Positions 12,159 to 57,096 of a stretch of DNA of 64,000 nucleotides are shown piece after piece. Position 1 is the first letter of the stretch. Each line of letters opens with the position of its first letter. Source of the stretch: Candidatus Aenigmatarchaeota archaeon (GTDB lineage: Archaea; Aenigmatarchaeota; Aenigmatarchaeia; CG10238-14; SCSR01). Where the stretch lies: the NCBI GenBank assembly GCA_016181005.1, contig JACPAE010000001.1, positions 179,885 through 243,884 of the forward strand, given 5' to 3'. Position numbers and translations under genes: made by a program. Under the pieces are notes generated by a model that was not told the DNA's origin, ran no database searches, and was given only the letters and a program-made list of their open reading frames with translations.

Positions 12159-12159
12159 T

Positions 12160-12399: not shown

Positions 12400-12465
12400 T
12401 AGGTAGACCGGTCGATAAGACAGAAGCAATTACAATAGTTTTATTACCCAAAACAATATAGGTGT

Positions 12466-13020: not shown

Positions 13021-13024
13021 TGTT

Positions 13025-13330: not shown

Positions 13331-13334
13331 GAAA

Positions 13335-13655
13335 ATGGCAAATACACTGATAGTGTTATTGGACTTCATAGGATTTTTAGGTTTTACTGTAGCTTTTGTA
13401 TATTCGCTTAAAAACTTCCAAAAGACAAGGCACATCTCAGTAACATGGCTGCCATTTACTTTAGGCATGGCGTTTTTGGCAGCATTTTTATTCTCTAACA
13501 TCTTAGAATGGTCAGATTTCCATTTAGAAGTTTTAGACATACATCCGCAAACTCTGGACGAGATAGAAAATTCAATTTTGGTTGCTGCAATAGTCAGCAT
13601 TTTCACCTCAGTTCTGGTAACCCGCGAAGAATTTCTTAAGCCAGTATCAAGGTGA
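13335..13655 (+). CDS. Small membrane protein
   Basis: 106 aa with three hydrophobic helices. Confidence 0.35.
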   Translation: MANTLIVLLDFIGFLGFTVAFVYSLKNFQKTRHISVTWLPFTLGMAFLAAFLFSNILEWSDFHLEVLDIHPQTLDEIENSILVAAIVSIFTSVLVTREEFLKPVSR

Positions 13656-13722
13656 AATACTGCATTTATTTCTTACGTTTTGAAATGTAATACTTAAATA
13701 TTAGTAATACTAAATAGTTTGT

Positions 13723-13980
13723 ATGAAGGTAGAGAGGATAGAGTACCTAACTAGAGTAGGGCCTAAAGGTCAAATGATGTTGAAAAAAAACGTAAGGGAG
13801 ACACTTCACATAAAGCCTGGTTCTTTGGTTAGAGTTCTCGCTACAAAAAGCGAAGGCAAATTTCAACCAGTAAGTAAAGAAGACATGATAGCAGAAGTTG
13901 AAAGAATAGCAAAACTAGCTGGAAAACATTGGCCTAAAGGCAAAACATCAGTTGATTTAGTTAGAGAAGAAAGGCGGTAA
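13723..13980 (+). CDS. vapB: AbrB/SpoVT-type antitoxin (VapB-like)
   Basis: 85 aa. Swapped-hairpin-like N-terminus. Sits 1 nt upstream of a PIN-domain gene. Confidence 0.7.
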   Translation: MKVERIEYLTRVGPKGQMMLKKNVRETLHIKPGSLVRVLATKSEGKFQPVSKEDMIAEVERIAKLAGKHWPKGKTSVDLVREERR

Positions 13981-13981
13981 A

Positions 13982-14395
13982 GTGAGAGTTGTAGTTGATA
14001 CTACTGTTTTGGTTAGTGTATTTTCGGACAAAGATAAATTCCATAAAGACGGAATCAGACTTTACTCGGATATTCTAGACAGGAAAATAGAACCTATTAT
14101 ACCAACTTTAGCTTTCCCAGAAACCTGTGGTGTTATTAGAAGAATATTAGGCGAACATATTGCAATTATGGTAGAAGACCAGTTGAATTTGCTTGTAGAT
14201 AATGAAGTGCTTAAAGCAGAAGAATTGACAATCAAAAGAATGAAAAGCTCGGTTGAAAGCGCCATAAGATATAGTGTTAGAGGCGGTGACGCAGTATTCA
14301 TTTCTTTAACAGAGGAATTTGATGCGAAACTTGCAACTTTCGATGAGGAATTAAAAAAGAAAATAAAGGGCAGAGTAAAGTTATTCAAAATATAA
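13982..14395 (+). CDS. vapC: PIN-domain toxin VapC
   Basis: 137 aa. N-terminal VVDTTVLV and conserved acidic residues of a PIN domain. Confidence 0.8.
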   Translation: MRVVVDTTVLVSVFSDKDKFHKDGIRLYSDILDRKIEPIIPTLAFPETCGVIRRILGEHIAIMVEDQLNLLVDNEVLKAEELTIKRMKSSVESAIRYSVRGGDAVFISLTEEFDAKLATFDEELKKKIKGRVKLFKI

Positions 14396-14498
14396 TAGCT
14401 GTGAAAAATAGGTGAGGAAAGAATATTTTTTGTTTCAATACAATTTTAGAAAGTGAGAGTTCGTGATGTGAAATACGGCGAAATCAAAATAAGACCAG

Positions 14499-14825
14499 TC
14501 ATTTAGTTAAGATTGCTTTTGGTTTTGCTATCCGCTCTGCGTATTCATTCGCTAGGGCAAGTTCCAAGTCTAGCAAACGTCTTACAAATGTATTCTCCTT
14601 GTCAATAGTATACAATTGCGTCTTTCCATATTTTCTAGTTGATTTAAGAATTCTGAACTTGACAAAGTCTTTCCATATATTGAAAAAAGTTGTCTTGGAT
14701 ATACCTGAACCCTCGATTATTTCCTTCTTGGAATAGTCAAATGGCATATTGTCTATCAGAAAATCTATTACTCTAAGCTTAGGAGTGTTGCCAACATATT
14801 GTATTAAAATCGACTCGTCTTTCAT
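14499..14825 (-). CDS. Winged-helix transcriptional regulator
   Basis: 108 aa. KKEIIEGSGISKTTFFNIWKDF looks like an HTH. Confidence 0.5.
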   Translation of the reverse strand: MKDESILIQYVGNTPKLRVIDFLIDNMPFDYSKKEIIEGSGISKTTFFNIWKDFVKFRILKSTRKYGKTQLYTIDKENTFVRRLLDLELALANEYAERIAKPKAILTK

Positions 14826-14895
14826 TTTGCATCATAGATACTATCTAGTATCAAGTATTTAAATATAGCCTTTCAAAGGTATTAAAAGTGAACTT

Positions 14896-15171
14896 ATGAG
14901 TTTCGATGAGGAAATACAAGCTGTTATTATCCACCAATTATTTAGAAAGCAAAAGTGGATGGCCAACCACATAGCATATGATAAAATTAAGAAATGGGTT
15001 GTGGCTGGTTTAAGAGGCAAGAACGGAAAAGAAACCGATCATGGCCTGAAGCAACTAATCAAAGAAAATCTAATTATACCCAAGCCTACAAATTATGGAC
15101 TGCAAATCAGTTTGAACATAGAATTTAAAGAGGAAATAGATAGGAGGATGAAGAAATTCTACGATGTTTAG
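14896..15171 (+). CDS. Hypothetical protein
   Basis: 91-aa ORF. AAAAGTGAAC motif lies 10 nt upstream. Confidence 0.35.
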   Translation: MSFDEEIQAVIIHQLFRKQKWMANHIAYDKIKKWVVAGLRGKNGKETDHGLKQLIKENLIIPKPTNYGLQISLNIEFKEEIDRRMKKFYDV

Positions 15172-15235
15172 AACTAACTCATGTTTCTTATAAAAAGTGA
15201 GAGTTGGAGAGATTTAAAGATTATTATTTATTTAA

Positions 15236-15793
15236 TTGTTTATGTCTACAAAGAGCGAACAACCATCTAAATTACTTGAACAAATGAAACAAGAATTGTA
15301 TAGAGTGATTGGCAACTACGCAGACAGATTAAATGTTAACAGGTTAAGGTCATATATAGATGCTTTTTCAATTCCCCAAACAACTTCATCCCAAATTTTA
15401 TTGTCAAAACTACAGGAACTAAAAAGAGGCCCTTATCTTACCCCAGAAGTTTTTAGACAATTTCGTCAAGAATTTCCGCCAGAAACGTCACCTGATTTTC
15501 ATGGGAGGTATGGAATTCTAACGTCTTTCGAGCATAGCATCGAAAGGTATGGTGAAGATGCATTAGCACATCTTATTTTATCATCACGGTCGTATCATGC
15601 TCTTTTGAGATCTGGGATTGAAACTATAAGTGAATTAAGAACATTTATTGAGACCCCACCACCTTACTACACCGAAGATTACAGAAAGGCAGGAATGCAT
15701 CCACTTAAGATTATACGTAACATAGGTGAAAAAGGAGCCTCCGAAATCCAAAGAGCATTAGAAGGATTTGATAATTTAAGAGCAAGGAAATGA
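15236..15793 (+). CDS. Hypothetical protein with C-terminal helix-hairpin-helix DNA-binding motif
   Basis: 185 aa. SYHALLRSGIETISEL...LKIIRNIGEKGASEIQRAL is HhH-like. AAAGTGAGAGTT lies 30 nt upstream. Confidence 0.4.
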   Translation: MFMSTKSEQPSKLLEQMKQELYRVIGNYADRLNVNRLRSYIDAFSIPQTTSSQILLSKLQELKRGPYLTPEVFRQFRQEFPPETSPDFHGRYGILTSFEHSIERYGEDALAHLILSSRSYHALLRSGIETISELRTFIETPPPYYTEDYRKAGMHPLKIIRNIGEKGASEIQRALEGFDNLRARK

Positions 15794-15896
15794 ACTCCCT
15801 CCGAAAGACAGGTATATCGGAGATTGTTTTCATGTTGTTACTCATATGTAGTGAGGAATAGAAAAGCTTAAATATAACTGAATACTCTATAAAGAT

Positions 15897-16184
15897 ATGC
15901 CTCAAGAAGTTAGAAGTGAATTGCAGTTACAACTGGAAAGTAGGGGTTACGAATTTTTAACTAATGTGAATCCTATGATTGAGACTGGAATACCACAAAG
16001 AGCCGACCCTAAAACAGGAATGCTATATTTTGATCGTGTATTGCGCATGTATCCAGCTACTGATACAGAAATAGCTAATAGATATTCTCATTTTGAAAAT
16101 ATTTTAGTTACAGACGCCTATGACATACACGGGAATCCTATTCCTGATTTCCGAGCTGTTTATGTAAGACGTCAACAAAAATAA
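15897..16184 (+). CDS. Hypothetical protein
   Basis: 95-aa ORF. Confidence 0.3.
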   Translation: MPQEVRSELQLQLESRGYEFLTNVNPMIETGIPQRADPKTGMLYFDRVLRMYPATDTEIANRYSHFENILVTDAYDIHGNPIPDFRAVYVRRQQK

Positions 16185-16469
16185 GTCCTAAACACGTTTA
16201 AAAACTGAGAAATAACTATTATTATCTACGATGTTGTGGTGCAGAATATATGTTGGTGTGAGTTATTCTAACGAGTAAGTGCATACACAACTGCACCGTA
16301 AATAGCTAAATGGTAAGAGACAAATCTAAGTGCTTTCAAGACTTCGTTAGTGGTCATTTCTTCCAAACTTTGTCTATAAGGTACATTTCTAGCATTATTT
16401 ATAAGCAGTCCAGCTAGAGGTATAAAATCCTGAATTTTGTAGTTTCTTCTTAAATCGTAGGACATATGA

Positions 16470-16945
16470 CATAATTCATCTATTAAATATTAAAGATTAG
16501 TATATCATATCCTTCATCACATATTTTCGTGAGTATAATAATTTGCAAATTTCTCATTATCTAGCAGATTCTAAATCGGTAAAATAAGCCGAAATGACGT
16601 AAAATCAGCCTTTTTTAACCTATTAAATACGATAATAAAACATATACTATATTATATATGAAAGAGTGACTAATAAATTTTGCCAAAAATGAGAGAAATC
16701 AAGTATATATTATAAAATATAATAGGGAAAATAGATATTGGTGAGACTTTATCGGTAAGTGAGGGTTAATATAATTAAGAATAAAACATATGTTGTAAAA
16801 TATAAATAGATAGAGATGGACTGTATTATATATTTAAGTGAGGATATGTTTTTGAAGGTAAAACTTTTATCTCTATAACGCCAAAGTGAGAGTTAACCGA
16901 AAAGTATAAAAGTGAGAAAAGCCATATAATAGTATAGAGTGAGAT
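16470..16945. promoter_or_regulatory. AT-rich non-coding region with at least 6 copies of an AAGTGAG(A/G) motif. Candidate promoter or origin-like region.
   Basis: GGTGAGACT at 16740; AAGTGAGGGTT at 16758; AAGTGAGGAT at 16836; AAAGTGAGAGTT at 16883-16894; AAAGTGAGAAAAG at 16908; AGAGTGAGATC at 16935. Confidence 0.5.
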
Positions 16946-16946
16946 C

Positions 16947-17576
16947 ATGTTTGGATGGGTAAAAAGGCTATTCAAGCGAAGCGAAGCGCTTCAAAGCGCT
17001 TCAAGCGATTTAACATCGCTTCAAAGCGATACTCAAGCGCTTGAAAATCAATCGCTTCAAAGCGCTTCAAATATTTCGGATATAGATCAAACGGAATCTA
17101 GACCTCTCGAAATTGAAAAAGGTTCCTTACATCTCGGTATTGCGGCTGGCTATACAGGCCGAGTTTTAAGGGATATTGAGGCTTCTTTACTTCGAATTGA
17201 AGCTCAAATGGTCACAAAAGACTGGATGACGCTTCAAGTAAAGGACGATATTGATAAACGTTTAGAAACAATCCAAGAGGCTTTGTACGGGATATCAGGA
17301 ATTGCTAAAACTCTACCTCCATCTGAACAAGCTAAAATAATGGATAAAATACAGTCAATCGAGTCTAATTTACCCCTAACACCACAGATGCAAAGGATAA
17401 TGGCTGTATTGGAATTAAATAAGGAAATCTCTTATGATGAGCTTGCTGCTAAATTAGGCATTCAAGTATCTGCTCTGAGGGGGTTACTCTCTCAAATGGC
17501 CAAAAGAACCCAAAGAATCGTTAGAACAGAAAAAGAAGGCAAAGGATGGGTTAAAATCAGTGAAACGACGCTTTAA
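16947..17576 (+). CDS. Repeat-containing protein with C-terminal winged-helix DNA-binding domain
   Basis: 209 aa. N-terminal LQSAS-type repeats, central coiled coil, C-terminal wHTH (LELNKEISYDELAAKLGIQVSALRGLLSQMAK). Confidence 0.5.
   Translation: MFGWVKRLFKRSEALQSASSDLTSLQSDTQALENQSLQSASNISDIDQTESRPLEIEKGSLHLGIAAGYTGRVLRDIEASLLRIEAQMVTKDWMTLQVKDDIDKRLETIQEALYGISGIAKTLPPSEQAKIMDKIQSIESNLPLTPQMQRIMAVLELNKEISYDELAAKLGIQVSALRGLLSQMAKRTQRIVRTEKEGKGWVKISETTL
16975..17075. repeat. Iteron-like direct repeats of CGCTTCAA(A)GCG, about 8 copies, including the perfect palindrome TCAAGCGCTTGA
   Basis: Region reads ttcaagcgaagcgaagcgcttcaaagcgcttcaagcgatttaacatcgcttcaaagcgatactcaagcgcttgaaaatcaatcgcttcaaagcgcttcaaat. 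A related CGCTTTAAAT x2 lies just after the stop at 17572-17595. Confidence 0.6.
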
Positions 17577-17647
17577 ATCGCTTTAAATCGAGCGATGTGG
17601 AAATGTACTCCTTCGAAAGCTAGATATTCTTAAATAAATGAATTTCA

Positions 17648-18232
17648 GTGGTATTTATGTCAGAAGGTGAAATGGTAGAAATAGTGAAGGAATTAGCTAA
17701 ATTTGATGATTTCAAGATGCTTAAGGAGCCATTAGTGCTTTCTCCCGATATGGTTATAGAATGGGATGGAAAGAGAATAGGGATGGAATTCAAACAAGGT
17801 TTATACTCTTCTGATATAGCTGCTGGTATAGGCCAATTGTTGTTGGGTAAGGTGGTTTTTGCTCTACATGAAATGTGGTTAGTCTTTCCGAAGGCTCAAG
17901 TTCCTAAAAGATTATCCCTAAGTTGGTATGAGACAATGACAACTGTCGGAATAAAACCTTATTGGCTGGATGTCACAGGATTTACCAGAATTGATTATAA
18001 GGATTGTGCAAAATTAACTAAGATGGATGATATAAGATATCAGTGGCCAATGAGATACATTAATATACCTTCTTACCAGAAAGAAAAGGCAAAAGAAGCG
18101 GAACTAGTTAGTGCTCCACTTCAATCTGCAATGAGGACATACCTCGATTTTATCGAAAACACCAGCTCTAACGAAAGTATGGCATTTCCTGCAAGGTACG
18201 TTGACCTTACCAATGAATGGACTAAACTTTGA
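17648..18232 (+). CDS. Hypothetical protein
   Basis: 194-aa ORF. Confidence 0.35.
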   Translation: MVFMSEGEMVEIVKELAKFDDFKMLKEPLVLSPDMVIEWDGKRIGMEFKQGLYSSDIAAGIGQLLLGKVVFALHEMWLVFPKAQVPKRLSLSWYETMTTVGIKPYWLDVTGFTRIDYKDCAKLTKMDDIRYQWPMRYINIPSYQKEKAKEAELVSAPLQSAMRTYLDFIENTSSNESMAFPARYVDLTNEWTKL

Positions 18233-28009: not shown

Positions 28010-30168
28010 CTAAATTTCCGGTTTAGGCACGTCCTCATTCAAGCCTTTCCTCTTCCTTATTGATTTAACTGTATCTTCAAACAAGTCCTTAGGCACCCGT
28101 TCAAATGTAGTTTCAACCAAAGAGTAGAATCCCCTGCCGCTTGTGGCCGACTTGAGCGAAGCGTCAAAACCAAATATGTCGCTGACAGGAATCTTGGCGC
28201 TGATTACGGAAGCCCCCCGTTCGTCCTTCATGTCCAGAATCTGCCCCCTCCGATTCTCAATCTCCTTTATAGCGTCACCGATAAGTTCCGTAGGAATGTC
28301 TACCCTAATAACCTGCTTCGGCTCCAATAACTGCGCGCCAGCCGCAAGCATAGCCTGCCTTATAGCCCACCTTACCGCAGGCCTTATCTGCCCCTCGCCT
28401 CTGTGCACAGGGTCTTCGTGAAGTTCCGCGTCCATCAGCTTTACTTTCAATCTCATGCATGGCTCTCTTGCCAGCGGCCCGTCTTCCATAACGTCAGTAA
28501 AAGCATCCTTGACCATCTCTATAATCTCGTTCAAATACTGGATGCCCTTTGTCATGTCTATCAAAACATTTCTGTTGTGCATCAAAAGTATGTTTCTGGC
28601 CTCGTCATAGTCCATCCCGGTTTTCTTGAATTTCTGGAAAAGCTCTATGTTCTTTCTTTTAATCTCGCCCTCGCTTGGAAGGTCGCCCGCAAGCATAGCC
28701 TGATAAATCCCATCCTCCAAAGGTTCTACTATGATGTCGAATTTGTTGTGCTTGTTCGGGGACTTGCCTTCTATTTCAGGGGATTTGTCAAACAAAGCCT
28801 CCCGGTAAACGACAATTGGCTTGGACATATCTACATCAATTCCCAAGTCCCTCAGTTTGTGCTCAACTTTTATTTCCAGATGCAGCTCTCCAAGGCCGGA
28901 AACAAGGTATTCCCCAGTCTCTTGATTAATTTTGACAACAAGCGTCGGGTCCTCCCTGCCAAGCCTCTTCAGTATGTCGACCAGCTTCGGCAGCTCCATG
29001 GGATTCTTCGGCTCGATGGACTTGGTGACAACAGGCTCGAATATGTGCTTTATTTCCTCGAAAGGCTCAATCACTTTTCCAGCGTCTGTTATGGTCTCTC
29101 CTGTGAATGCATCAGGTATGCCGACGATGCCGACAATATTTCCTGCGGTGATTTCATCGACAGGTATTCTTTGTATCCCCCTGTAAACAACTACTTGTTG
29201 CAGTTTCTGCGTTTTATGCTGAGTTATTAAATAGACGTCCTTGCCCTTGAAAATTTTTCCGGAGAATATTCTTCCTGCAGCGACAAAGCCAACATGAGGA
29301 TCCGGAACCATCTTCGTCATTATCATCGCAAGGGTTCCATCAGGATCGCATGCCAGCATGTCTTTTCCAACATCGTTGTTCAAATCACCCTTCCATATTT
29401 TCGGAATTCTGTATTTCTGCGCATCTAAAGGATTAGGCAAGTGTTTTACAATCATGTCGAGCACCACTTGGTGCATCGGGGCTTTTTTCGCAAGCTCGTC
29501 TTCTTTTCCTTGGATTGTCAAATCGATTATTTCCTTGAATGTCATTCTGGTCTTCTTCATGTAAGGGATCGATATTGCCCAGCGCCTGAAAGCTGATCCA
29601 AACGCTACTGTGCCATCCATTACATTCACAAGCCATTTCTGCTTGTACTCCTCCGGCGCGTACTTTTGGATATAAATGTTGACGTCGCGTATAACTTCCT
29701 CGAACCTTTGCATCATCTGCTCTGGAGTAAGCTTGAGTTCACGAATGAATCTGTCAACTTTGTTGACGAATAAAACTGGCTTTACATACTCTCTCAACGC
29801 TTGACGAAGAACTGTCTCTGTCTGTGGCATTATTCCTTCCACTGGATCTATAAGGACAATAGTTCCATCAACTGCTCGCATTGCGCGTGTGACATCACCT
29901 CCAAAGTCAACGTGACCCGGAGTATCTACAAGATTAATCAAGTAGTCCTTGCCGTCATATTCATGAACCATTGAAACATTAGCACCATAAACTGTGAGTT
30001 CTCTCTTTCTTTCCTCTGGATCGAACCATGTGACCATCGCTTTTCCAGCCATCTCCTCAGCAATCATGCCGGCGCCGGCCATTAAATTGTCAGTTAATGT
30101 GGTTTTTCCATGGTGTACAAACCCGTAGATATAGCGATAAACTAAATCTATTGCGAGGACGTAGCCAT
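28010..30168 (-). CDS. fusA: Elongation factor 2 (aEF-2). N-terminus disrupted: the GTP-binding P-loop is encoded upstream of the first in-frame start codon.
   Basis: The 690-aa ORF begins MAGAGMIAEE, but YIYGFVHHGKTTLTDNL (G1 motif) lies in frame upstream with no ATG/GTG/TTG. An ATG at 30166-30168 sits in the -1 frame (MATSSQ*). The C-terminal region HRGEGQIRPAVR matches the EF-2 diphthamide-site region. Confidence 0.85.
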
Positions 30169-30172
30169 GTTC

Positions 30173-30511
30173 CTAATTCTTGCCGGATCCTTCATTGTTT
30201 CTGTGATCCTTTCCGTCATTTCTTTCTTTGCTATGATTTTCACCTACATTCATTGACTTTAGATTCTGATTTAAACTCCAAACCTTATAAGAGTTGTTAA
30301 TTGTAGAATTTAACACATTCATTCTTTCCACCAAATTTAACAAAGATCTTGTAGTTCTCTCACTTCTATTTATTTTTAATTGAACTTCTCTTTTACTTAA
30401 CAATTTCTTCTTTTCGAAGAATTTTATTATATCTGAAAAGTTTACAGAACTTTTCCTTTGAAAAGGATATAATGTATAAAATATATCTAGATTTTCGCTG
30501 CTAAAGTCCAA
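30173..30511 (-). CDS. Hypothetical basic protein inserted between rps7 and fusA. Possible wHTH.
   Basis: 112-aa ORF. Its TAG stop (30173-30175) is in frame with the EF-2 N-terminal coding region. Confidence 0.4.
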   Translation of the reverse strand: MDFSSENLDIFYTLYPFQRKSSVNFSDIIKFFEKKKLLSKREVQLKINRSERTTRSLLNLVERMNVLNSTINNSYKVWSLNQNLKSMNVGENHSKERNDGKDHRNNEGSGKN

Positions 30512-30592
30512 CCCATTTAATAAAACATTTAATTATTTCCACTTAGTTGTATTAGGTTCAACGAGATGTTTTAAAATTTTCCTTAAATCGAA

Positions 30593-31195
30593 TTACCTTG
30601 CGCCTTCGGCTTCCTTCTCTATCCTTTCCCTTTCCCTTATGGCGTCGCTCTTCTGGTTGTCCCTGTTGTACGTCGCCATAATCTCGTTCGCCAACGCATC
30701 CACCATAGTCTCCTTCTTCCCAAAAGCCTTCTTGTACGCCGCCTGCGTTATTATCTTGAGCGCGATGTCGACCCTCCTCTGCGGCGCTGTTATGACAGCC
30801 CTCCTGACTATAATGCCGCCCACTTGGTATCCTGCAATCTCCTCCCTCAGAGCCGCATTTTCGATTGCTCTGACTAAAACTTCTATAGGATTAATCTTTG
30901 TTCTTTCGTAAATTTTATCGAACGCCTCCTTGACAATCCTGTAAGTTGTCACGTATCTGCCTACAACTCTCCCCGACGTTATCAGATGCTTCCTTCCCTT
31001 GTGGCCAGGTACCATCATCTTCATTATAAGCCTCTCAACAATGTTCATCTTTGACTTGTAGAACTGCTGCCTTGATAGCCTGCCGGAACTTTTCGGAACA
31101 AGTCGTGGTGAAAAATTGATGTAATTCTTTAATCCCGTATCATTTACCTGAATTCCGCTTACGTCCCACTTGTCAAAAATCTTGATGTCAGCCAT
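30593..31195 (-). CDS. rps7: Ribosomal protein S7
   Basis: 200 aa, S7 family. Confidence 0.9.
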   Translation of the reverse strand: MADIKIFDKWDVSGIQVNDTGLKNYINFSPRLVPKSSGRLSRQQFYKSKMNIVERLIMKMMVPGHKGRKHLITSGRVVGRYVTTYRIVKEAFDKIYERTKINPIEVLVRAIENAALREEIAGYQVGGIIVRRAVITAPQRRVDIALKIITQAAYKKAFGKKETMVDALANEIMATYNRDNQKSDAIRERERIEKEAEGAR

Positions 31196-31199
31196 TCAA

Positions 31200-31622
31200 C
31201 TACCTTGCGGGTTTCTGCTTCTTCCCAGACAGAATCTGGCTCAATGCCACACCGTTGACTGCAGACACCTTGTATTTCAATCCCCACATGCTACCTACAG
31301 AGCCTCCCTGAGATCCTCCAACGCCTTCGATAAGAACCTCGTCATGCTCGTTGATTTGGTCTATTGCATGGTTTCCCGGAACAAATGCTGTCACCTGGAT
31401 ATTATTCTTAATCAACTGCACTCTGACAGCTTTAACTAGTCCGGATGAAGGTTGCTTTTGCTCTACAGTCCTTTTGCTGATGACAAGCCCCTTTACCTGC
31501 GGCGCGCCTTGCAGGGGATCCTGCTTCCACAGCTTTTTCTTTTTTCTGACGTAATCCACCTTTTTCCATCTATAGTGTTTCCTTATTTTAAGCAGTTTTC
31601 TACCTGCAAATTCTCCTGGCAT
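31200..31622 (-). CDS. rps12: Ribosomal protein S12
   Basis: 140 aa. PQVKGLVISKRTVEQKQPSSGLVKAVRVQL matches S12/S23. Confidence 0.9.
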   Translation of the reverse strand: MPGEFAGRKLLKIRKHYRWKKVDYVRKKKKLWKQDPLQGAPQVKGLVISKRTVEQKQPSSGLVKAVRVQLIKNNIQVTAFVPGNHAIDQINEHDEVLIEGVGGSQGGSVGSMWGLKYKVSAVNGVALSQILSGKKQKPAR

Positions 31623-31626
31623 TCAT

Positions 31627-32049
31627 TCACCTTATTGTAAGTTCATTGATGTCATGGTTTCTTTGTAATAGCTCTTTATATAACTTTAAATGCCTGCCGT
31701 CCCTTCCGATTACTATAGCCTTGTTCTTCTTGTCAACTATGACCTCAACTATATTTCTCCCGTTTTCATTCCTAACTCTTACAGAATTCGCCTGCGGTAT
31801 CAAATTTTTAGCGAACTTGTCTATATCTTCCGAGAATTCGAAAATTTTTATGTTCTTCTTTATCAAGTTCTCGGTGTTTTTGACACTGTTACCTTTTTTT
31901 CCAATCGCTCTTCCAACATCACCTTCATCTATGACAAAGTAGACGTAATTGGAGTTGTTGTCAATTATACAATCACGGACACTCACACCAGTGAGCTTTT
32001 CAAAGAGCGCAACCAATCGTATGCTTTCTGTGTCAAAGATTATCGGCAT
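31627..32049 (-). CDS. nusA: Archaeal NusA-like protein (two KH domains)
   Basis: 140 aa. GKKGNSVKNTENL and IGRDGRHLK are KH GXXG motifs. Confidence 0.85.
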   Translation of the reverse strand: MPIIFDTESIRLVALFEKLTGVSVRDCIIDNNSNYVYFVIDEGDVGRAIGKKGNSVKNTENLIKKNIKIFEFSEDIDKFAKNLIPQANSVRVRNENGRNIVEVIVDKKNKAIVIGRDGRHLKLYKELLQRNHDINELTIR

Positions 32050-32052
32050 AAC

Positions 32053-32316
32053 TTATCCTTTTATAACAAGCGCGGATACTGGAAAAGGCTTACCGCAAAT
32101 AACTCCAAGTTCCCTGCTGGTTCCGTCGAATGTTTCCAACTTTACCTTTGAGATTTTCGTATTGTGTTCAAGTTCCTTCCTTACATTGGAAGACAAGTTG
32201 TTTGATACTACAATTAATCTTGGTTTGTTTGTTTTTATATAAGTTATCGTTTCATTATACCCGATTATTGCTTTGTTTGATTTAATCGCTTCTTGTACCT
32301 CTTCGGTCAGTACCAT
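32053..32316 (-). CDS. rpl30e: Ribosomal protein L30e
   Basis: 87 aa in the conserved position between rpoA'' and nusA. Confidence 0.85.
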   Translation of the reverse strand: MVLTEEVQEAIKSNKAIIGYNETITYIKTNKPRLIVVSNNLSSNVRKELEHNTKISKVKLETFDGTSRELGVICGKPFPVSALVIKG

Positions 32317-32761: not shown

Positions 32762-33880
32762 TTACTCTTCGCTTCTCACTATAAGGTCAAACATTCCAGT
32801 TCCTGCCGGCACAATCTGCCCCACCATGACATTCTCAAAGATTCCCTGCAAGTTGTCAATCTCGTTCCTTATCGAAGCCTTGACAAGATGCTTTATCGTC
32901 TCCTCGAAGGCAGCCCGAGCAAGAATAGAAGTCTTCGCTCCTGCAACACCATAGCGCCCTATAGAATCAACAGCGCCGCTAAATGTCATAATGTCGGCAA
33001 CAAGAGTAACATACCTGACATCCACGTCAAGCGCCTGCTCCTGCATTGTCTTCAAAGCCTCCCTTATTATGACGCTCCTTGCGGCTTCTATGCCTAGCAC
33101 AGATTCTATCTCATAAATGTCATTTGTGAACGTTTTCTTCTCATCGACTTCCTTTATTTTCAGCACATCGCTCAAATTAGTTCCTATAGTGTTTATTATC
33201 CAGTCATCCTCCTCTTTTCTAACAAGAGCGTTTTTAATCCCTTTAACTCCCGTAACAGACAGCATCAGAATCTTTTCTTTCAGCTTCTGCAGCTCCTTAA
33301 CGTCATCAGTCTTCGCTATAACTGAAATCTTATCCTCCCTAGACCTGACATTCACGTTCTTCACAGACTCTTTGATAATCCTTTGCATCACATCAACCCT
33401 TCTCTTGTCGGAGACTTCAATTTCTATCGCGTTCTCGTTCAAGTTCAGCGAGATCCGATTAATGAGATTCATAACCTTCTTTTCTATAACAAATTCCGCA
33501 AGTTTAGCGGCCTCGGTCGCATTGTTGCTTTCTCTCTTCAAATATATGGTCATCATGGGAGTCTCGGGCGTCTTTTTGGCATCGAAAATTTCTATTAGCC
33601 TAGGCAGGCCATAAGTAACTCTTATCCCGGCTGTTCCTGCAAAGTGATAAGTACGCATCGTCATCTGTGTAGCTGGTTCAGAAATGCTTTGGGCAGCAAT
33701 TATTCCTATTCCCTCGGCCGGTTCAAATCTGCCTTGAAGATAAACTTTCTTGACTTCTTCAAGCAGCTTCTGCTTCTTCTCCGCATTCAGTCTCATTTCC
33801 TTCCCGACATTCTCCACTTCTTCCAGCAATTTACTAGGCAAGTTGTCTTCATGCGAATTTGTCTGCGATTTCTCTGACAT
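32762..33880 (-). CDS. rpoA2: RNA polymerase subunit A''
   Basis: 372 aa. GIGIIAAQSISEPATQMTMRTYHFAG. Overlaps the upstream gene by 32 nt. Confidence 0.9.
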   Translation of the reverse strand: MSEKSQTNSHEDNLPSKLLEEVENVGKEMRLNAEKKQKLLEEVKKVYLQGRFEPAEGIGIIAAQSISEPATQMTMRTYHFAGTAGIRVTYGLPRLIEIFDAKKTPETPMMTIYLKRESNNATEAAKLAEFVIEKKVMNLINRISLNLNENAIEIEVSDKRRVDVMQRIIKESVKNVNVRSREDKISVIAKTDDVKELQKLKEKILMLSVTGVKGIKNALVRKEEDDWIINTIGTNLSDVLKIKEVDEKKTFTNDIYEIESVLGIEAARSVIIREALKTMQEQALDVDVRYVTLVADIMTFSGAVDSIGRYGVAGAKTSILARAAFEETIKHLVKASIRNEIDNLQGIFENVMVGQIVPAGTGMFDLIVRSEE

Positions 33881-36800
33881 TTATTCCTCCACTTTCTATT
33901 TTTGACGGATCCAAACCATCCTCGCCCGGCACAAACTGCACTATCCTGTTGGCGCTGTCCCTTACAGTACCGTCGTATTCGACTTTCAAATCCTGCAGCG
34001 CACCGACCAGCCTTCTTTCCATATAACCGCTGTGCCTTGTCTTCAGCGACTTGTCCATAAGCGACTCCCTGCTGTTGATAGCATCGAAGAAGAATTCAAA
34101 CGGCGTAACACCGTCCTTGAACCCTCTACTGACGAATCCTGTCGCCTCCAAGCTCAACGTTCCTGGCTTGAAATGCGGAAATGTCCGCTGATAATAACCC
34201 TTCTCTATCCTCTCACCCATAACCATCTCCTGCCCGACCATCGCAGCAGTTTGCACAATGTTCACAACCGATCCCCTGGCACCGCTCCTCACCATTGCAA
34301 GTGTAAAGTTGTCCTTCAAATACTTCTCAAGAACTTTTTGCACATCATTCAACCCGTTCCTCAGGATTGTTTTGACAATGTGGTCAAGGCTCTCCTTCGG
34401 CGACCTGCCGACAAGAAGCTTCAACTCGCCCCTCTCATATTTCTTGTTTGTGTCGTCAACATCTTTCCTCAGGGTTTCTATAATCTCCTTTATGTCCTTC
34501 TTCGCATTCTCCGGCAGGTCCTGGTCAGACAAGCTGATGGAAAATCCAATAAGCATAAGATAGTTTATCGCCAGCCTTGTAACATTGTAGATGAACTTTT
34601 TAGTAGCCTCGCCGCCGTACACCTTTTCCATCTTGTCTATTATTTTTCCGGCCTCGGCTCCGATGGCAACTTTGTCTATAGCCCCCTTTAAAAGCCTGCC
34701 ATTCTCTATCACGACACTTTCCCCTGTGTTCGATTTGAATTCGAGCGAGAATCCTTTCGGCAGGAACGTGCTGAACACTTCTTTTCCTGTAAGATGCTCC
34801 TTGTCCGGCAACTCTATGCTCTGGTCGACAGCCCTTACAAGCTGCGTGAACTCTTTTCTTGAAAGTTTGACATTGTCCTGTGTCAGAAGATACGATCCGG
34901 TTATGTGGTCACGTATGGCTCCTATGACAGGCCCCGAGAATCTCGGGCTTCGTATGTGCTTCGGCACCATCATCAAATTCTCCACCTCAACCTTTGCCTC
35001 TTCTGTCTGTGGCACATGAAGGTTCATCTCATCCCCGTCAAAATCGGCATTGTAAGGAGTGGTCGCGCTGAGATTCATTCTGAAAGTTTTGAAGGGCATG
35101 ACCTTGACTTTATGCCCCATCAAGCTCATCCTGTGAAGGCTGGGTTGCCTATTGAAAATAACAATGTCGCCGTTCTGCAAATGCCTCTCCACAATGTAGC
35201 CAGGGGCAATCTCGGTTGCTATCTCGCTCTTGTTCAAATCGGTTATCTTCTTTCTCCTTCCGTCGGGCCTGATTACGTAATTTGCTCCCGGCCAAATCTC
35301 TGAACCGTTCAGGACGAGCTTTTTGAGCTCTTCCAAGTCGCTTTCGTTAACTTTGACAGGCATTGTCAATTCTTTCGCGATGACTTCAGGAACTCCAACC
35401 TCGTCAATATCGATCATTGGATCTGGTGAGATGACAGTTCTCGCAGAAAAGTTAACCCTCTTGCCGGCAAGGTTTCCTCTGAATCTCCCTTCCTTGGTCT
35501 TCAACCTCTGCGACAGTGTCTTAAGCACCCTTCCCGATCTGTGCCTTGCAGGCGGGACTCCAGACAGCTCATTGTCGAAATAAGTTGATATATGGTACTG
35601 CAAAAGTTCCCACAAGTCTTCAAGTATAAAGTCTGGCGCACCCAAGTCGATGTTCTCCTTTAACCTGTCATTAATCCTTACTATGTCAACAAGTTTGTGC
35701 GTGAGGTCGTCCTCGCTCCTCTCCCCTGTCTCGAGTGTGATAGACGGTCTTACGGTAACAGGCGGTATAGGCATCAGCGTCAGCACAAGCCACTCCGGCC
35801 TCACCTTCAAGCCGATCACGTCAAGGTCCTCCTGTGAAATCTTCTCCAACATTTCCCTCACCTCGCCAAAATTCAGCGTCCTTGCTCCTTCGACAAACGT
35901 GTAAGGCTTGATGAACTTGAACTTCTTCTGCTCAGTATTGCAGTGCGGACACTTTTTTCTGGACATTGTCACAAGCTCTTTAAAGTTCATTTTCTTCCCC
36001 CTGGCCTTTTCAATGTCCTTGGGATCAACGAGCATCTTGACGCACTTGTGGCAAAACATTTTCAAAAGCGCAAAAACAATTTTCGAATAGTGTACATGTA
36101 TGATGGGTTTTGTCAGTTCCAAGTAGCCGAAATGCCCGTGGCAGTCTCCCACATTTCCCCCGCAAGTCCTGCATCTCACACCAGGATCTATAACCCCAAG
36201 CCTCGGGTCCATCAAGCCACCTTCAATCGGATAGCCTTCTTGGTCGTAAAGCTCTGTCTTGGTCAGCTTGGCCGCGGCAATGCTCTTCACCATCTCAGGC
36301 GAGACGATTCCAAATTCCAGCTTGCTCACCTTCATCAGGTTCTCGTCGACAACAATCTTCGGATAAATAAGCATGCTCTTGAGCTCGTCCAGCATAAGCT
36401 TGAACGCGTAGCTCATCTCCACATCAACTATCTTTGACTCTCCATGTATCGGGCAAATTTTTTTGTTCTTTACGCGGTCCTGAATGGAAACCAAGCCGCA
36501 GAGGGTGCAGATACATACAGTCGTCTTGTCAGAGTCGAACCTTTCTTTCAGCACAAGCGACGCACCATGAGCTATGAGGCAGTCCTTCTCCATCTCACCA
36601 AGCCTCAGACCGCCTTCCTTGCTTCTTCCTTCAGTCGGTTGCTTTGTCAGCAGCGTCACAGGTCCCCTCGATCTCGCATGTATTTTGTTTGAAACAAGAT
36701 GATCCAGCTTCTGGTAAAACGTGCTTCCGATAAATATCTGAGAGTCGAATCTCTTTCCTGTCCTGCCATCGTACATTATTTCCTTCCCGTCGTTTCTAAA

Positions 36801-38132
36801 TCCATGAGCCACCAAAGTGTTTCTAAGTTCATTCTCCGGCGTCGGGCTGAACGCAGACGCATTCACGTACTTGCCAGTAAGCGCAGCCACCTTGCCTGCG
36901 ATAATCTCCAGCAACTGCCCCATAGTCATTCTTGACGGAATGCCGTGGGGATTGAAAATTATGTCCGGCACAATACCGCTTTCTGTGAACGGCATGTCTT
37001 CAGACGGAACAACAAGGGCGATTACACCTTTCTGGCCGTGCCTTGACGCAAGCTTGTCGCCGATTTCAGGAACCTTCATGTCCCTAACAGCAACTTTAAT
37101 CAGCTTTGTGCCGTCAGTAGTGTCGGTTATGAAAACCCTGTCAACAACTCCATGGTCGCCATGCCTAAGCCTTAAAGAAGTTTCGCGTATGTTCTCCAGG
37201 CCTGTGACAAACTTGTCCATGGTACCCAAGAACCTAAGCGGCGACACCCTCCCGATTATCACCTGATCCGATTCCAAAATTGTTTCCGGATTCGATATCC
37301 CGTCTTCCGGCAGATGCTTGTATGAGTCCTCGCCAGCATAACCTCTGACGCCGGCCTCAGGTATCGCTATTATGTCCTCCTGGCCTCCAAGATACCTTTT
37401 TTGCTCCGCTTCATAAGACCTGTACATGTAGGACCACAGAACACCTTTCTGCAAAGAGCCTGCATTTATGACTATGCTGTCTTCCATGTTGTACCCATCA
37501 AAGGACGCCACTGCAATTATCAGATTGTTTCCGTTCGGATGGGTATTGTAAGGGATGACATCGTATGCATGGGTCTGCACCAAGGGCCTTTGAGGGTAAA
37601 TCATCACGTTCGACTTGGTGTCGACTCTGGAAAGGAAATTCGTGGCAAAAATTCCAATGGACTGCCCGACCATTTTAGCCCCGTAGTTGACCCTGTCCCC
37701 CCTGTTGAATTCTGGGAACGGAATGAAAGATGCAGAGAAACCCAAAATTACTGCTGGATCCATTTCAATATGAGTGTGGTCCGGCGTAAGCTCGTTCTCA
37801 TCAAGTGCAATCAAAGAGTTTTCCTCCTCCTCGCTGTCAAGATACTCAACAACGCCGGTCTTCACCAATTCACTCCAGTTAATCTCACCTTTCTTCAATT
37901 TCTCCACTAGCTCTTTCGTCAATTTCGGGACTCCCCTCTCGACAACAATCAACGGCCTTCTCACTCTTCCGGATTCCGACAGAATTCTGACTTCGTCCAA
38001 ATTCCGGTGGTAAACTACATTTACTTCATAGGGTATAACCCCGGCCCTTCTCTTTTCCCTGATATCTCTAACAAGCTTTTCCGGATCTGCCGTGTCGCCA
38101 ACAAACTTGCCGTCAAAAAATATCGTGCTCAT
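33849..38132 (-). CDS. rpoB1-rpoA1: RNA polymerase subunit B' (C-terminal half of RpoB, residues 1-599) fused in frame to subunit A' (residues 600-1427)
   Basis: The B' part has GRHGQKGV, FDGYNMEDS, GEMEKDCLIAHGA and a C-terminal zinc ribbon. The A' part has MKVSKLEFGIVSPE, zinc ribbons and NADFDGDEMN. I read the junction DNA as ...gac gag aac ctg atg aag gtg agc..., with no stop. Confidence 0.85.
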   Translation of the reverse strand: MSTIFFDGKFVGDTADPEKLVRDIREKRRAGVIPYEVNVVYHRNLDEVRILSESGRVRRPLIVVERGVPKLTKELVEKLKKGEINWSELVKTGVVEYLDSEEEENSLIALDENELTPDHTHIEMDPAVILGFSASFIPFPEFNRGDRVNYGAKMVGQSIGIFATNFLSRVDTKSNVMIYPQRPLVQTHAYDVIPYNTHPNGNNLIIAVASFDGYNMEDSIVINAGSLQKGVLWSYMYRSYEAEQKRYLGGQEDIIAIPEAGVRGYAGEDSYKHLPEDGISNPETILESDQVIIGRVSPLRFLGTMDKFVTGLENIRETSLRLRHGDHGVVDRVFITDTTDGTKLIKVAVRDMKVPEIGDKLASRHGQKGVIALVVPSEDMPFTESGIVPDIIFNPHGIPSRMTMGQLLEIIAGKVAALTGKYVNASAFSPTPENELRNTLVAHGFRNDGKEIMYDGRTGKRFDSQIFIGSTFYQKLDHLVSNKIHARSRGPVTLLTKQPTEGRSKEGGLRLGEMEKDCLIAHGASLVLKERFDSDKTTVCICTLCGLVSIQDRVKNKKICPIHGESKIVDVEMSYAFKLMLDELKSMLIYPKIVVDENLMKVSKLEFGIVSPEMVKSIAAAKLTKTELYDQEGYPIEGGLMDPRLGVIDPGVRCRTCGGNVGDCHGHFGYLELTKPIIHVHYSKIVFALLKMFCHKCVKMLVDPKDIEKARGKKMNFKELVTMSRKKCPHCNTEQKKFKFIKPYTFVEGARTLNFGEVREMLEKISQEDLDVIGLKVRPEWLVLTLMPIPPVTVRPSITLETGERSEDDLTHKLVDIVRINDRLKENIDLGAPDFILEDLWELLQYHISTYFDNELSGVPPARHRSGRVLKTLSQRLKTKEGRFRGNLAGKRVNFSARTVISPDPMIDIDEVGVPEVIAKELTMPVKVNESDLEELKKLVLNGSEIWPGANYVIRPDGRRKKITDLNKSEIATEIAPGYIVERHLQNGDIVIFNRQPSLHRMSLMGHKVKVMPFKTFRMNLSATTPYNADFDGDEMNLHVPQTEEAKVEVENLMMVPKHIRSPRFSGPVIGAIRDHITGSYLLTQDNVKLSRKEFTQLVRAVDQSIELPDKEHLTGKEVFSTFLPKGFSLEFKSNTGESVVIENGRLLKGAIDKVAIGAEAGKIIDKMEKVYGGEATKKFIYNVTRLAINYLMLIGFSISLSDQDLPENAKKDIKEIIETLRKDVDDTNKKYERGELKLLVGRSPKESLDHIVKTILRNGLNDVQKVLEKYLKDNFTLAMVRSGARGSVVNIVQTAAMVGQEMVMGERIEKGYYQRTFPHFKPGTLSLEATGFVSRGFKDGVTPFEFFFDAINSRESLMDKSLKTRHSGYMERRLVGALQDLKVEYDGTVRDSANRIVQFVPGEDGLDPSKIESGGINVREIADKFA

Positions 38133-38136
38133 ATCA

Positions 38137-39612
38137 TCACTTCTTCAGCATGTCAAAGACAGGCTTTAATTCCTTCTCCTGCAGTCCTCTTGACACTTCC
38201 GCCATCGACGCCAAATATTTTCTCAAGCCAATCGTCGCGCCTTCCGGCGTTTCCGAGGTGCACAATTTTCCAAAATGTGTGGGATGCAGTTCCCTGGCCT
38301 CAAAGTGTTCCTGGGTTGATGTAAGCGGGGATAGTACGTTCCTCATATGAGAGATGGTTTTAATGTAGCTGCCTCTCTCAAGCCTCTGGCTGACTCCGGT
38401 CCTTCCACCTACCCACGAGCCAATGGCAAGTGCCGACACCAGCTGGTTGCTGAGGACGTTGGATTCTATAATCGACTGCAACGGAGGCAGCCTCCCCCTC
38501 TTTGTCAGCTTTTGGTAGTTGTACGTCACCCTTGTTATCAATCCCCACTTGCCCAAAAGAATCGATCTTAGAAGTATCTCAAGCAAATCCCCGGATTGCC
38601 TGAGCCTCTTGTTCGAATAATGATCCAAGTCGTCCTCGTCGATCTTGTTCAAATGCAGCTTTATGATCTTCTCAATCGCCTTTGCAAGGAACAGTGCCTT
38701 GGCCATTCTGTCAGGCGGCTCCTGTCCAAGATGCGGAAGCAAGTAGCGGTCGATTATCTTCACGGCACGCTGTATTCTGTACTCCAACTGCGGTATTTTC
38801 AAGTGCTTCCCGATTTCGTCCATGGCATCGTCCTTGTTGACTGCCTGGTTCTCGTAAAGATTGATGTAGAATTCCTCCTGCACATCCTCGTCTGACGACA
38901 CAGCATTCACAATATTCCTGTCATTATCCAAGCCCAACGCCTTTATCAAGATGCCTAAAGGAAGTTTTGTAACATTCGCGAAACTTATTGTCAGCAGCCC
39001 GTCAACCCTCCTTTCAATCAGGTGCCTCTGCACGTAACCGTCCTTTTCGGAATGGATCCTTGCTATTTCTGCAATGTTGGTTGAGCCTAGTTTGGATACT
39101 ATTATCCTGTTCGATGCGATCTCCTCTACAAGAACAAGAATTCTTTCGGTCCCGTTTACGATGAAATACCCGCCGGGATCATCCGGATCTTCGCCAGCTT
39201 CAATCAACCCCTCACGCGGCATTTGCGACAATGGACATATCTTCGACTTGAGCATCACAGGCATGTCTCCGAAGTTGACAATCACAGGCTCACCCTCCTG
39301 CTTGTTTATCACAGGCGTTATCTCGACATACATCGGTGCGGCATAAGTGAGATTTCTGGTCCTCGCCTCTGACGGCATGATTGCTCTGACGCTGCCGTCC
39401 GCCTCCTTGACAGTCGGCTCTCCTATCTTGAAATCGCCCAGCTTCAGCTTTATGTCTCCAACGTCCGGGACATCTGGCTTGATAACGCCGATCTCACTCA
39501 GGACTTTTCCTATCCTTCTCATGATGAAATCGTTGTAGGACTCGATCTGGAATTTCGAAAATCCCCTTTCACGTATTTGGCTTTTTAACAGCGGGACGAA
39601 GAAATCTTTCAT
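38137..39612 (-). CDS. rpoB2: RNA polymerase subunit B'' (N-terminal half of RpoB)
   Basis: 491 aa, N-terminal RpoB domains. Lies 4 nt upstream of the B'/A' ORF in a different frame. Confidence 0.9.
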   Translation of the reverse strand: MKDFFVPLLKSQIRERGFSKFQIESYNDFIMRRIGKVLSEIGVIKPDVPDVGDIKLKLGDFKIGEPTVKEADGSVRAIMPSEARTRNLTYAAPMYVEITPVINKQEGEPVIVNFGDMPVMLKSKICPLSQMPREGLIEAGEDPDDPGGYFIVNGTERILVLVEEIASNRIIVSKLGSTNIAEIARIHSEKDGYVQRHLIERRVDGLLTISFANVTKLPLGILIKALGLDNDRNIVNAVSSDEDVQEEFYINLYENQAVNKDDAMDEIGKHLKIPQLEYRIQRAVKIIDRYLLPHLGQEPPDRMAKALFLAKAIEKIIKLHLNKIDEDDLDHYSNKRLRQSGDLLEILLRSILLGKWGLITRVTYNYQKLTKRGRLPPLQSIIESNVLSNQLVSALAIGSWVGGRTGVSQRLERGSYIKTISHMRNVLSPLTSTQEHFEARELHPTHFGKLCTSETPEGATIGLRKYLASMAEVSRGLQEKELKPVFDMLKK

Positions 39613-39616
39613 AAAA

Positions 39617-39847
39617 TCAACCCTTTATCACGACCCTATAGTAGACAGTCTCTCCGGCAACGGCAGATTTTCTGCCTATCTTCACAACATCGCCGAGTTT
39701 CCCGCCGAGATTCTGGATGACTGGGTCGTTGGACGAAATTCTCGGTAGCTGCCTGAGCGTTATTCTGTATTTTTCCAAAAGTTCCTTTTTCTCATTGTCA
39801 TTAAGCAAGACATGCTTCGGCACCAACTCATTCTTGGTTATGTCCAT
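39617..39847 (-). CDS. rpoH: RNA polymerase subunit H
   Basis: 76 aa. GDVVKIGRKSAVAGETVYYRVV is Rpb5-like. Confidence 0.88.
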   Translation of the reverse strand: MDITKNELVPKHVLLNDNEKKELLEKYRITLRQLPRISSNDPVIQNLGGKLGDVVKIGRKSAVAGETVYYRVVIKG

Positions 39848-40013
39848 CTCCTTTATTTTAACACCTCAAAGAAATCGAACCGGGAGAACAGACGATGTGC
39901 ATTCTCAAGTGTAGAGTGGTGTGTTTGTACCCAAGCAATAATTATCCCCACGAGGCCGATTTGATATCCTAAATATTATTTCAAAGTTCTTAAATGTTTC
40001 GGTTACTGTAAAG

Positions 40014-40140
40014 CGCCCGAAGCGGGATTTGAACCCGCGTTTGCTGTCATAGTTTAATGATCACAGCCGTGACAGGGTTATGCGACAACTCTGCATCCTA
40101 GGCCATTCTCCCAGGTTTAACCTGTCTAGACGATTCGGGC
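40014..40140 (-). tRNA. tRNA-like element: perfect T-arm and 7-bp acceptor helix enclosing 127 nt. Interior does not fold into canonical D or anticodon arms. Either a multi-intron pre-tRNA or a tRNA-derived pseudogene.
   Basis: 5' GCCCGAA ... GCGGG-TTCAAAT-CCCGC-TTCGGGC-G 3'. Internal hairpin CTGTCA-N20-TGACAG. About 50 nt in excess of a mature tRNA. Confidence 0.45.
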
Positions 40141-40188
40141 TTGTTGAATAATAGAATGTGGTTGTTTATAAATTTGAGATAAGAGGTA

Positions 40189-40320
40189 GAAGGACGCAGT
40201 GCAGTTCCCGTGGTCAAGCCACAGTACAAAGCACCACGCTGGAGAGTTTAACTTCCGTGTTCGGATTTCCCTACTTTTAGAGTATATGGGAACGGGTGGA
40301 ACCTCTCCGCTCTGGTCCTT
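40189..40320 (-). rRNA. rrf: 5S rRNA, standalone, with an approximately 21-nt insertion after the CCCAT segment
   Basis: Minus strand reads GGACCAGAGCGGAGAGGTTCCACCCGTTCCCAT[ATACTCTAAAAGTAGGGAAAT]CCGAACACGGAAGTTAAAC...GTACTG...GGGAACTGC...GCGTCCTTC. Universal CCGAACACGGAAGTTAA motif present, and helix I closes via GAAGGAC/GTCCTTC. Confidence 0.8.
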
Positions 40321-40390
40321 CAATAACTTTATGAGGTATTCAATGTTTTTAAACATGTAGTATAACGAATAAATGTTTTGTCATATTTCA

Positions 40391-41013: not shown

Positions 41014-41124
41014 TCCCGAAGGAGAGATTTGAACTCTCAACCTCACCGTATCCGGTAGAGTGCTGATCACTAGCACAATAGTACTAGGCTACAGCGGCGC
41101 GCTCCACCATTGAGCTACTTCGGG
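41014..41124 (-). tRNA. tRNA-Tyr (GTA) with 39-nt intron at canonical 37/38 position
   Basis: CCCGAAG-TA-GCTC-AATGGTG-GAGC-G-CGCCG-CTGTAG[39 nt]A-CGGTG-AGGTT-GAGAG-TTCAAAT-CTCTC-CTTCGGG-A. C1:G72 and A73 are archaeal Tyr identity elements. Intron CTAC pairs with GTAG, consistent with a BHB. Confidence 0.8.
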
Positions 41125-56996: not shown

Positions 56997-57096
56997 TGGA
57001 CCGGGAGAGATTTGAACTCTCGTCCCCCTGCTTTCTTAGATATACGGAGCAAAGTCGTATAAGACAGGTGCTCCAACCAGACTAAGCTACCGGTCC
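56997..57096 (-). tRNA. tRNA-Ile (TAT) with 25-nt intron at canonical position
   Basis: GGACCGG-TA-GCTT-AGTCTGGTTG-GAGC-A-CCTGT-CTTATA[25 nt]A-GCAGG-GGGAC-GAGAG-TTCAAAT-CTCTC-CCGGTCC-A. TATACG of exon/intron pairs with intron CGTATA. Confidence 0.7.

Follow-up and report, generated by a model that had tools for sequence, protein, structure and literature searches.

In the stretch of DNA analysed here, 64,000 nucleotides (nt) of contig JACPAE010000001.1 from a Candidatus Aenigmatarchaeota archaeon (hereafter the window), the RNA polymerase genes rpoB', for the C-terminal half of subunit B, and rpoA', for subunit A', run together in a single open reading frame (ORF), which is very probably a genuine and heritable gene fusion. 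The wider reading favoured here, to which I assign a probability of roughly 0.6, is that Aenigmatarchaeota are a hot spot where, driven by gene packing, catalytic-core genes have been fused about 20 separate times, B'-A' chains and B''-B'-A' chains of ~1911 amino acids (aa) included, with a core that works as one or two polypeptides; a 2214-aa B-A'-A'' chain in a divergent archaeon bears comparison. The fused gene and its parts are laid out as follows:

33849..38132, minus strand: fused rpoB'-rpoA' ORF, 1427 codons plus stop, 160.4 kDa (ORF list, translation, Pfam)
36336..38132, minus strand: B' part, residues 1-599, Rpb2 domains 4, 5, 6 and 7, ending ...SYAFKLMLDELKSMLIYPKIVVDENL (Pfam, alignment with 120 homologues)
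33849..36335, minus strand: A' part, residues 600-1427 plus stop, Rpb1 domains 1-5 (N-part), zinc motifs and NADFDGD (Pfam)
36315..36362, minus strand: junction, tat ccg aag att gtt gtc gac gag aac CTG ATG aag gtg agc aag ctg (sequence)

The junction and its reproducibility

The ORF begins with ATG and contains zero internal stops, and B' passes into A' without a stop or linker (...IYPKIVVDENL/MKVSKLEFG, the slash marking the junction). On the minus strand the DNA reads gtt gtc gac gag aac ctg ATG aag gtg agc aag ctg gaa ttt, with the junction ATG at 36335-36333, base for base as quoted in a first-pass annotation made from the sequence alone. That annotation had also described a single uninterrupted 1427-codon B'-A' frame, which the ORF list, the translation and Pfam confirmed, and a TGATG in the +1 frame, which is indeed present: the +1 frame reads T, stop, stop (TGA TGA), i.e., TGATGA. 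The product is 100% identical to NCBI entry MBI2084258.1 from a Candidatus Aenigmarchaeota archaeon metagenome-assembled genome (MAG), which is annotated only as 'subunit A''.

Both parts had the full domain complement of their subunits. Rpb2_4, Rpb2_5, Rpb2_6 and Rpb2_7 (PF04566, PF04567, PF00562, PF04560) lay in order within residues 4-594, followed after a gap of ~6 residues by Rpb1_1 to Rpb1_4 and the N-part of Rpb1_5 (PF04997, PF00623, PF04983, PF05000, PF04998) at residues 601-1406. The B' part carries the clamp tail ...YAFKL(L/M)LDELK...YPK, which is conserved in 120 homologues, and Rpo2 chains from the PDB matched it as far as their own C-termini. The A' part (Rpo1N) was matched by PDB Rpo1N chains with E about 1e-111, and the catalytic motif YNADFDGDEMNLH was found in the translation. 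The calculated masses of the two parts were 66.9 kDa (B') and 93.5 kDa (A'). Pfam revealed no intein, protease site or module, or inserted domain at the junction.

The same fusion was recovered from independent data. A contig from the Logan assembly of SRR12113430 was identical to the window at 6284/6284 nt and encoded the same 1427-aa product. Aligning the junction with the closest relatives, as the first-pass annotation had proposed, showed that the nearest two, P0002 (5 contigs) and P0003, with A' identities of 90% and 83%, are fused in frame as well; the codon at the junction differs between them (CTG in the window, TTG in P0002, GTT in P0003), and there is no shared homopolymer context. 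In a search with the whole ORF, the best 120 matches all spanned the junction at 53-100% identity and came from NCBI, JGI, ENA and Logan: 90 were B'-A' proteins (1417-1461 aa), 29 were B''+B'+A' proteins (about 1909-1932 aa), and the rest were truncated. At least 119 further protein clusters from these four sources are thus fused.

Across the 120 homologues, the B' tail ...SYAFKLMLDELKSMLIYPK(I/L)xV and the A' head (V/I)xxIEFG..SP were conserved and in frame, and only 3-6 residues between them varied. In-frame translation of the final 10 B' codons in the window gives the conserved C-terminus IYPK(I/V)VV. An indel within these codons would disrupt the conserved tail, and the intact tail therefore argues against an artefact. 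Neither hallmark of an artefact was seen, i.e., failure to be reproduced elsewhere or a translation departing from its homologues before the junction, and the fusion was present both in related genomes and in independent assemblies. Of the two possibilities the first-pass annotation had raised, a real fusion or a 1-nt indel hiding a TGA, the former is thus borne out by the identical Logan contig, the fused relatives and the further fused clusters.

Distribution, origin and number of fusions

With one genome per GTDB species, 14 loci of Aenigmatarchaeota type were fused, 8 of them titled Aenigmatarchaeota and the rest coming from unclassified 'uncultured' MAGs. In other archaeal lineages a stop followed B' in 62/62 loci (Woese-, Nano-, Micr- and Nanohaloarchaeota, methanogens, haloarchaea, Hadesarchaea, an Asgard MAG and others), with A' starting about 0-78 nt past the B' stop; the median was about 9 nt, from a sample in which short in-frame spacers are over-represented. 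When all 1.84 billion representative proteins were scanned with HMMER, using a 600-aa query across the junction, one Aenigmatarchaeota cluster was found to span it; the only other proteins spanning it were P0167 and P0187. A query with A' only does not favour fusions, unlike the whole-ORF and junction queries, and among its 120 closest relatives (70-100% identity) 108 were split (827-844 aa) and 12 fused. The split proteins begin MKVE(K/R)IEFGIVSPEMVK, and since their start methionine aligns with the junction methionine of the window, the latter marks the ancestral A' start.

The junction DNA of split relatives was retrieved via the A' protein and is hence unbiased by junction structure. In L161 and L162 the B' stop and A' start overlapped by 4 nt (ATGA), in L163 by 1 nt (TAATG), and in L164, L165 and L171 the B' stop was followed by 1 base and the A' ATG, while L170 had an unsplit B, a 171-nt spacer and then A'. 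The distance from the YPK codons to the ATG was 21 nt in the three fused sequences nearest the window, and the spacing of the closest split relatives differed from this by 1 or 4 nt. The notion that split relatives always carry the B' stop in frame with A' was rejected, as these unbiased loci showed offsets of -4, -1, +1 and +171 nt. The all-in-frame pattern arose because tblastn ranking with a fused query favours in-frame loci with short spacers: among the junction-query loci L016-L160, every split locus, also those of the outgroups, had a gap divisible by 3. One such in-frame split variant is L082 (EEV-stop-MKV, gtt TAG ATG). Two related loci in one crown subgroup of the A' tree, L104 and L107, have TGG (Trp, fused) and TGA (stop, split), respectively, the TGA of L107 being followed by a 45-nt insertion ahead of the A' ATG; the pair looks like a direct example of a single-base switch of state.

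Ancestrally, the genes would have been separate, with the B' stop overlapping or abutting the A' ATG. A 1-nt insertion into an overlap of the TGATG or TAATG type, or a 4-nt insertion into one of the ATGA type, would yield the 21-nt spacing of the fused lineage; alternatively, a stop-to-sense change in an in-frame variant, e.g., TAG to TTG in L082, would require one substitution. The putative driver is gene packing: where stop and start overlap and the Shine-Dalgarno (SD) motif sits inside the upstream gene, a single-base change could fuse two essential subunits, and the near-absence of a spacer between the two genes is probably why fusion has recurred in Aenigmatarchaeota. As a trace of such history the TGATG, read by the first-pass annotation as the classic stop/start overlap, is plausible given the ATGA and TAATG overlaps of split relatives; as a sign of a sequencing error it fails. 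The motif alone proves little, because any A' starting with ATG AAR carries a TGA in the +1 frame. It was rejected as proof of a hidden stop on this ground, and the fused locus L166 (gtt ATG aaa) does without TGATG.

The number of events was estimated on neighbour-joining trees of A' only, with 438 non-identical sequences including 111 split A' proteins added around the deep fused clade. This tree required 20 state changes (bootstrap 18-24). A history of fusions only took 24 events (20-29), and a single fusion entailed 41 later fissions (34-44); on these counts, repeated independent fusion within Aenigmatarchaeota is favoured over a single origin. The sister group of the window clade was purely split in 99/100 bootstraps, and the 1911-aa clade sits within a ladder of split groups. 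A recent fusion in the window lineage, nested among split groups, appears to be the best explanation of its state.

That a single fusion took place early, at the base of Aenigmatarchaeota, and was then undone by many fissions, the window having retained or reverted to the ancestral condition, is unlikely. A first tree, built from a fusion-biased sample, did show mostly fused deep branches, and fission by a nonsense mutation beside the methionine would be easy, as the in-frame split variants (L082; TGA in L107 versus TGG in L104) illustrate. However, the deep branches of that tree had been sampled only via the fusion-biased search, which accounts for its ancestral-fusion picture, and the version with an ancestral fusion for the whole phylum and renewed splitting in the crown was dropped after the unbiased A' sample had been added around the deep fused clade: the single gain then costs 41 losses, against 24 events for fusions only or 20 for a mixed history. 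Moreover, split groups surround the window clade, which retains the start methionine, and the outgroups are all split.

What weighs against a count of about 20 fusions is the quality of the trees. They are simple neighbour-joining trees of A' only, from sequence sets chosen by similarity with uneven sampling, so that the number of events is approximate. In addition, monophyly of the three fused sequences nearest the window (P0001-P0003) was recovered in only 49/100 bootstraps, and P0003 may for this reason be a separate fusion.

Larger fusions were seen elsewhere. Twenty-nine clusters of 1909-1932 aa (P0057, P0084-P0117; e.g., P0092 and P0112, the latter being MFH0929252.1) join B'', B' and A' in one ORF, at loci L013, L014 and L139-L160, and fall into at least two clades, with P0057 as a singleton. 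Among split relatives, L170, with an unsplit 1084-aa B, a 57-aa ORF and A', is the nearest to the largest of these clades. The A' search around the deep fused clade omits the 1911-aa proteins, even the one its query was taken from, probably owing to a length filter, and is unusable for counting B''-B'-A' forms. P0167, a 2214-aa ORF (L169:3001-9645, plus strand, on Logan contig SRR24908257_10944), contains Rpb2 domains 1-7 and Rpb1 domains 1-5, and hence B, A' and A'' as a single chain; as a fusion it is independent and goes further, and the surrounding archaeal operon (S19e ... S12, S7, EF-2), with tight overlaps between its genes, belongs to a very divergent organism. P0187 (1665 aa, truncated) has an Rpb2-like part followed in frame by an Rpb1-like N-terminal part and resembles a eukaryotic or giant-virus sequence; either a further fusion or a merge during gene calling could account for it. 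Finally, the A' proteins P0409, P0420, P0424 and P0427 (1303-1321 aa) carry the intein-type domain PF14890, which indicates that some Aenigmatarchaeota A' genes contain inteins.

Expression and folding of the fused chain

With the rpoB' stop lost, the ribosome would read from the C-terminal half of B directly into A', and the product would be one polypeptide of ~160 kDa that forms the polymerase together with separate B'', A'' and small subunits. Predicted pairing with the anti-SD sequence before the ATG was -3.0 kcal/mol in the window and -0.9 to -3.0 kcal/mol in the fused window clade. The background median within the ORF was -3.8 kcal/mol, so that pairing in the window clade is weaker than background. 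In split relatives it was -7.0 to -8.3 kcal/mol, with an SD-like motif within the last B' codons. As the SD-like motif has been lost at the retained ATG, A' in the window lineage is probably produced solely within the fusion, and since A' is essential, the fused chain would have to be functional.

It is quite improbable that the ORF is fused and the subunits are nevertheless separate, be it by internal initiation of A' at the ATG at 36335 or by post-translational cleavage, with a canonical subunit pattern as the outcome. Leaderless or SD-independent initiation occurs in archaea, and the junction methionine of the window lineage lies exactly at the ancestral A' start. Two further points tell against A' being made solely as part of the fusion: some internal initiation could take place at the ATG that has been kept in frame, and the anti-SD used was a generic 16S 3' end that may differ from this organism's own. 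On the other hand, the SD-like pairing found in every split relative is lost in the window, the junction has no protease or intein module, and without a stop there is no way to release B' alone. The methionine itself is missing from most other fused lineages (an ATG stands at the aligned position in only 1/72 fused loci), so that the fusion must work by itself there. That sequencing or assembly introduced a spurious 1-nt insertion near the 3' end of B', masking a TGA between genes that are really separate, has hardly any chance of being correct: the +1-frame TGATGA and the overlapping stop/start junctions of the closest split relatives, with spacings off by 1 or 4 nt, would suit it, but the identical Logan contig, the fused relatives with other junction codons, the conserved B' tail up to the junction and the missing SD motif expected for a separate A' do not, and an artefact or assembly pipeline shared among the fused relatives is contradicted by their four independent sources.

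A covalent joint would be tolerated at this position since B ends and A' begins with strands that are expected to lie side by side in the clamp, where a turn of 3-6 residues could connect them. An AlphaFold model of residues 470-900 had a beta-hairpin across the junction (strands at model residues 120-127 and 132-140) with a pLDDT (predicted local distance difference test score) of about 86-87; the mean pLDDT was 70.7 and the outer ends were poorly predicted. Its best match in the PDB was 3qqc_A, with a template modelling (TM) score of 0.79, which aligned across the junction in one stretch (PKLNLSE-GG-KVIGSIEFG versus PKIVVDENLMKVSKLEFG). PDB entry 3QQC, rClamp, is an engineered Pyrococcus furiosus clamp in which B 1053-1115 is linked to A' 3-318, and which was reported to be correctly folded and to bind Spt4/5 (PMC3094117). 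It shares with the window the chain order from the B C-terminus to the A' N-terminus and a short linker (2 residues, GG), but is an artificial fragment of 436 residues that includes a piece of A'', and is neither a natural gene nor a whole subunit. Judging from the model, a B-to-A' tether of a few residues, as in rClamp, is plausibly compatible with the structure.

Operon context and known systems

The fused gene lies in an operon of canonical archaeal order, rpoH, rpoB'', the fusion, rpoA'', L30e, NusA, S12, S7 and EF-2:

39617..39847, minus strand: rpoH, 76 aa, first operon gene, AGGAG upstream (read from sequence)
38137..39612, minus strand: rpoB'' (Rpb2 domains 1-3), own gene (ORF list, Pfam)
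32762..33880, minus strand: rpoA'' (C-terminal part of Rpb1 domain 5), own gene (ORF list, Pfam)
28010..32316, minus strand: downstream operon genes L30e to EF-2, whole span (Pfam)
32053..32316, minus strand: L30e (Pfam)
31627..32049, minus strand: NusA-KH (Pfam)
31200..31622, minus strand: S12 (Pfam)
30593..31195, minus strand: S7 (Pfam)
28010..30082, minus strand: EF-2 (Pfam)

In L170 the position homologous to rpoH carries the Pfam domain RNA_pol_Rpb5_C. Counted from its first ATG, rpoA'' shares 32 nt with the end of the fusion, which is comparable to the overlaps in relatives (29 nt in L161 and L162, 38 nt in L163 and L164). At the boundary between B'' and B' (38130-38142, minus strand) the sequence aag TGA TGA T ATG comprises a double stop, 1 base and a start; this near-zero spacer is closed in the 1911-aa relatives.

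Further features were seen outside the operon. A 5S rRNA gene lies just upstream of it at 40186-40323 (minus strand). Two tRNA matches, at 41014-41124 and 56997-57096 (both minus strand), are 111 and 100 nt long, a length that suggests introns, and a further tRNA-like sequence at ~40010-40140 was read by eye but not reported by Rfam at its gathering threshold. At positions 10001-18000 the GC skew was reversed and the G+C fraction (GC) was 0.34-0.38, whereas most other 2-kb windows had 0.40-0.49; this region encodes a DUF998 protein, TspO/MBR, a PIN-domain protein and several ORFs without a Pfam match. A 185-aa ORF at 15236-15793 matched the C-terminal domain of the bacterial RNA polymerase alpha subunit.

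The window would have an unusual subunit pattern, with B'', B'A' and A'' as its large chains, and some relatives would have B''B'A' and A''. The first-pass annotation had called a B'-A' fusion 'not a known archaeal state'. This holds for the literature: no description of an archaeal B-A' fusion was found in the full text searched, with most subscription journals outside its reach. It does not hold for public databases, where such fusions are common under the labels 'subunit A'' or 'subunit B', and these labels can mislead the extraction of rpoB and rpoA1 markers, orthology tables and estimates of completeness. Recurrence within one phylum makes it testable whether covalent tethering is neutral or an aid to assembly in small-genome DPANN archaea, and whether gene packing (the stop/start overlap and the SD motif in the upstream gene) eases fusion. 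If the hot-spot reading is true, these lineages are natural experiments showing a multi-subunit core at work as one or two polypeptides, and their natural junctions could guide single-chain constructs for recombinant archaeal polymerase.

Joined and divided polymerase genes have been described before. An unsplit A in Thaumarchaeota and Korarchaeota and a secondary A'-A'' fusion in Pacearchaeota have been reported, and such events were called rare (PMC5484517). Like the window, they testify to the evolutionary lability of large-subunit gene boundaries in archaea, DPANN included, but they join or split pieces of one subunit, whereas the window joins two different subunits. Orf6 of the yeast cytoplasmic plasmid pGKL2 is an Rpb2::Rpb1 fusion with both catalytic subunits in one polypeptide and in the same order as in the window; unlike the window product, it is a drastically reduced and divergent protein of 982 aa with an inserted domain at the junction, and is not a cellular polymerase (PMC2919709). 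The canonical archaeal rpoH-rpoB(''/')-rpoA'-rpoA'' operon agrees with the window in gene order, domain content and the downstream genes L30e-NusA-S12-S7-EF-2, but ends B' with a stop before A', which the window lacks.

The closest analogues are the natural rpoB-rpoC (beta::beta') fusions of Helicobacter and Wolbachia. As in the window, where one uninterrupted ORF leads from the C-terminus of the second-largest subunit into the N-terminus of the largest, the same two termini are joined in frame after adjacent operon genes have lost a stop, and the fusion is lineage-specific and tolerated as the termini neighbour each other in the clamp. In contrast, the window encodes an archaeal enzyme resembling RNA polymerase II (Pol II), in which both large subunits were already split, so that its fusion links half of B to two thirds of A through 3-6 residues, and the archaeal fusion is polymorphic within its phylum, with many apparent origins. 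Because its domains and closest structures are of archaeal or Pol II type, the window fusion falls outside the bacterial rpoB/rpoC family and is an analogue, not a member, of the bacterial beta::beta' fusions.

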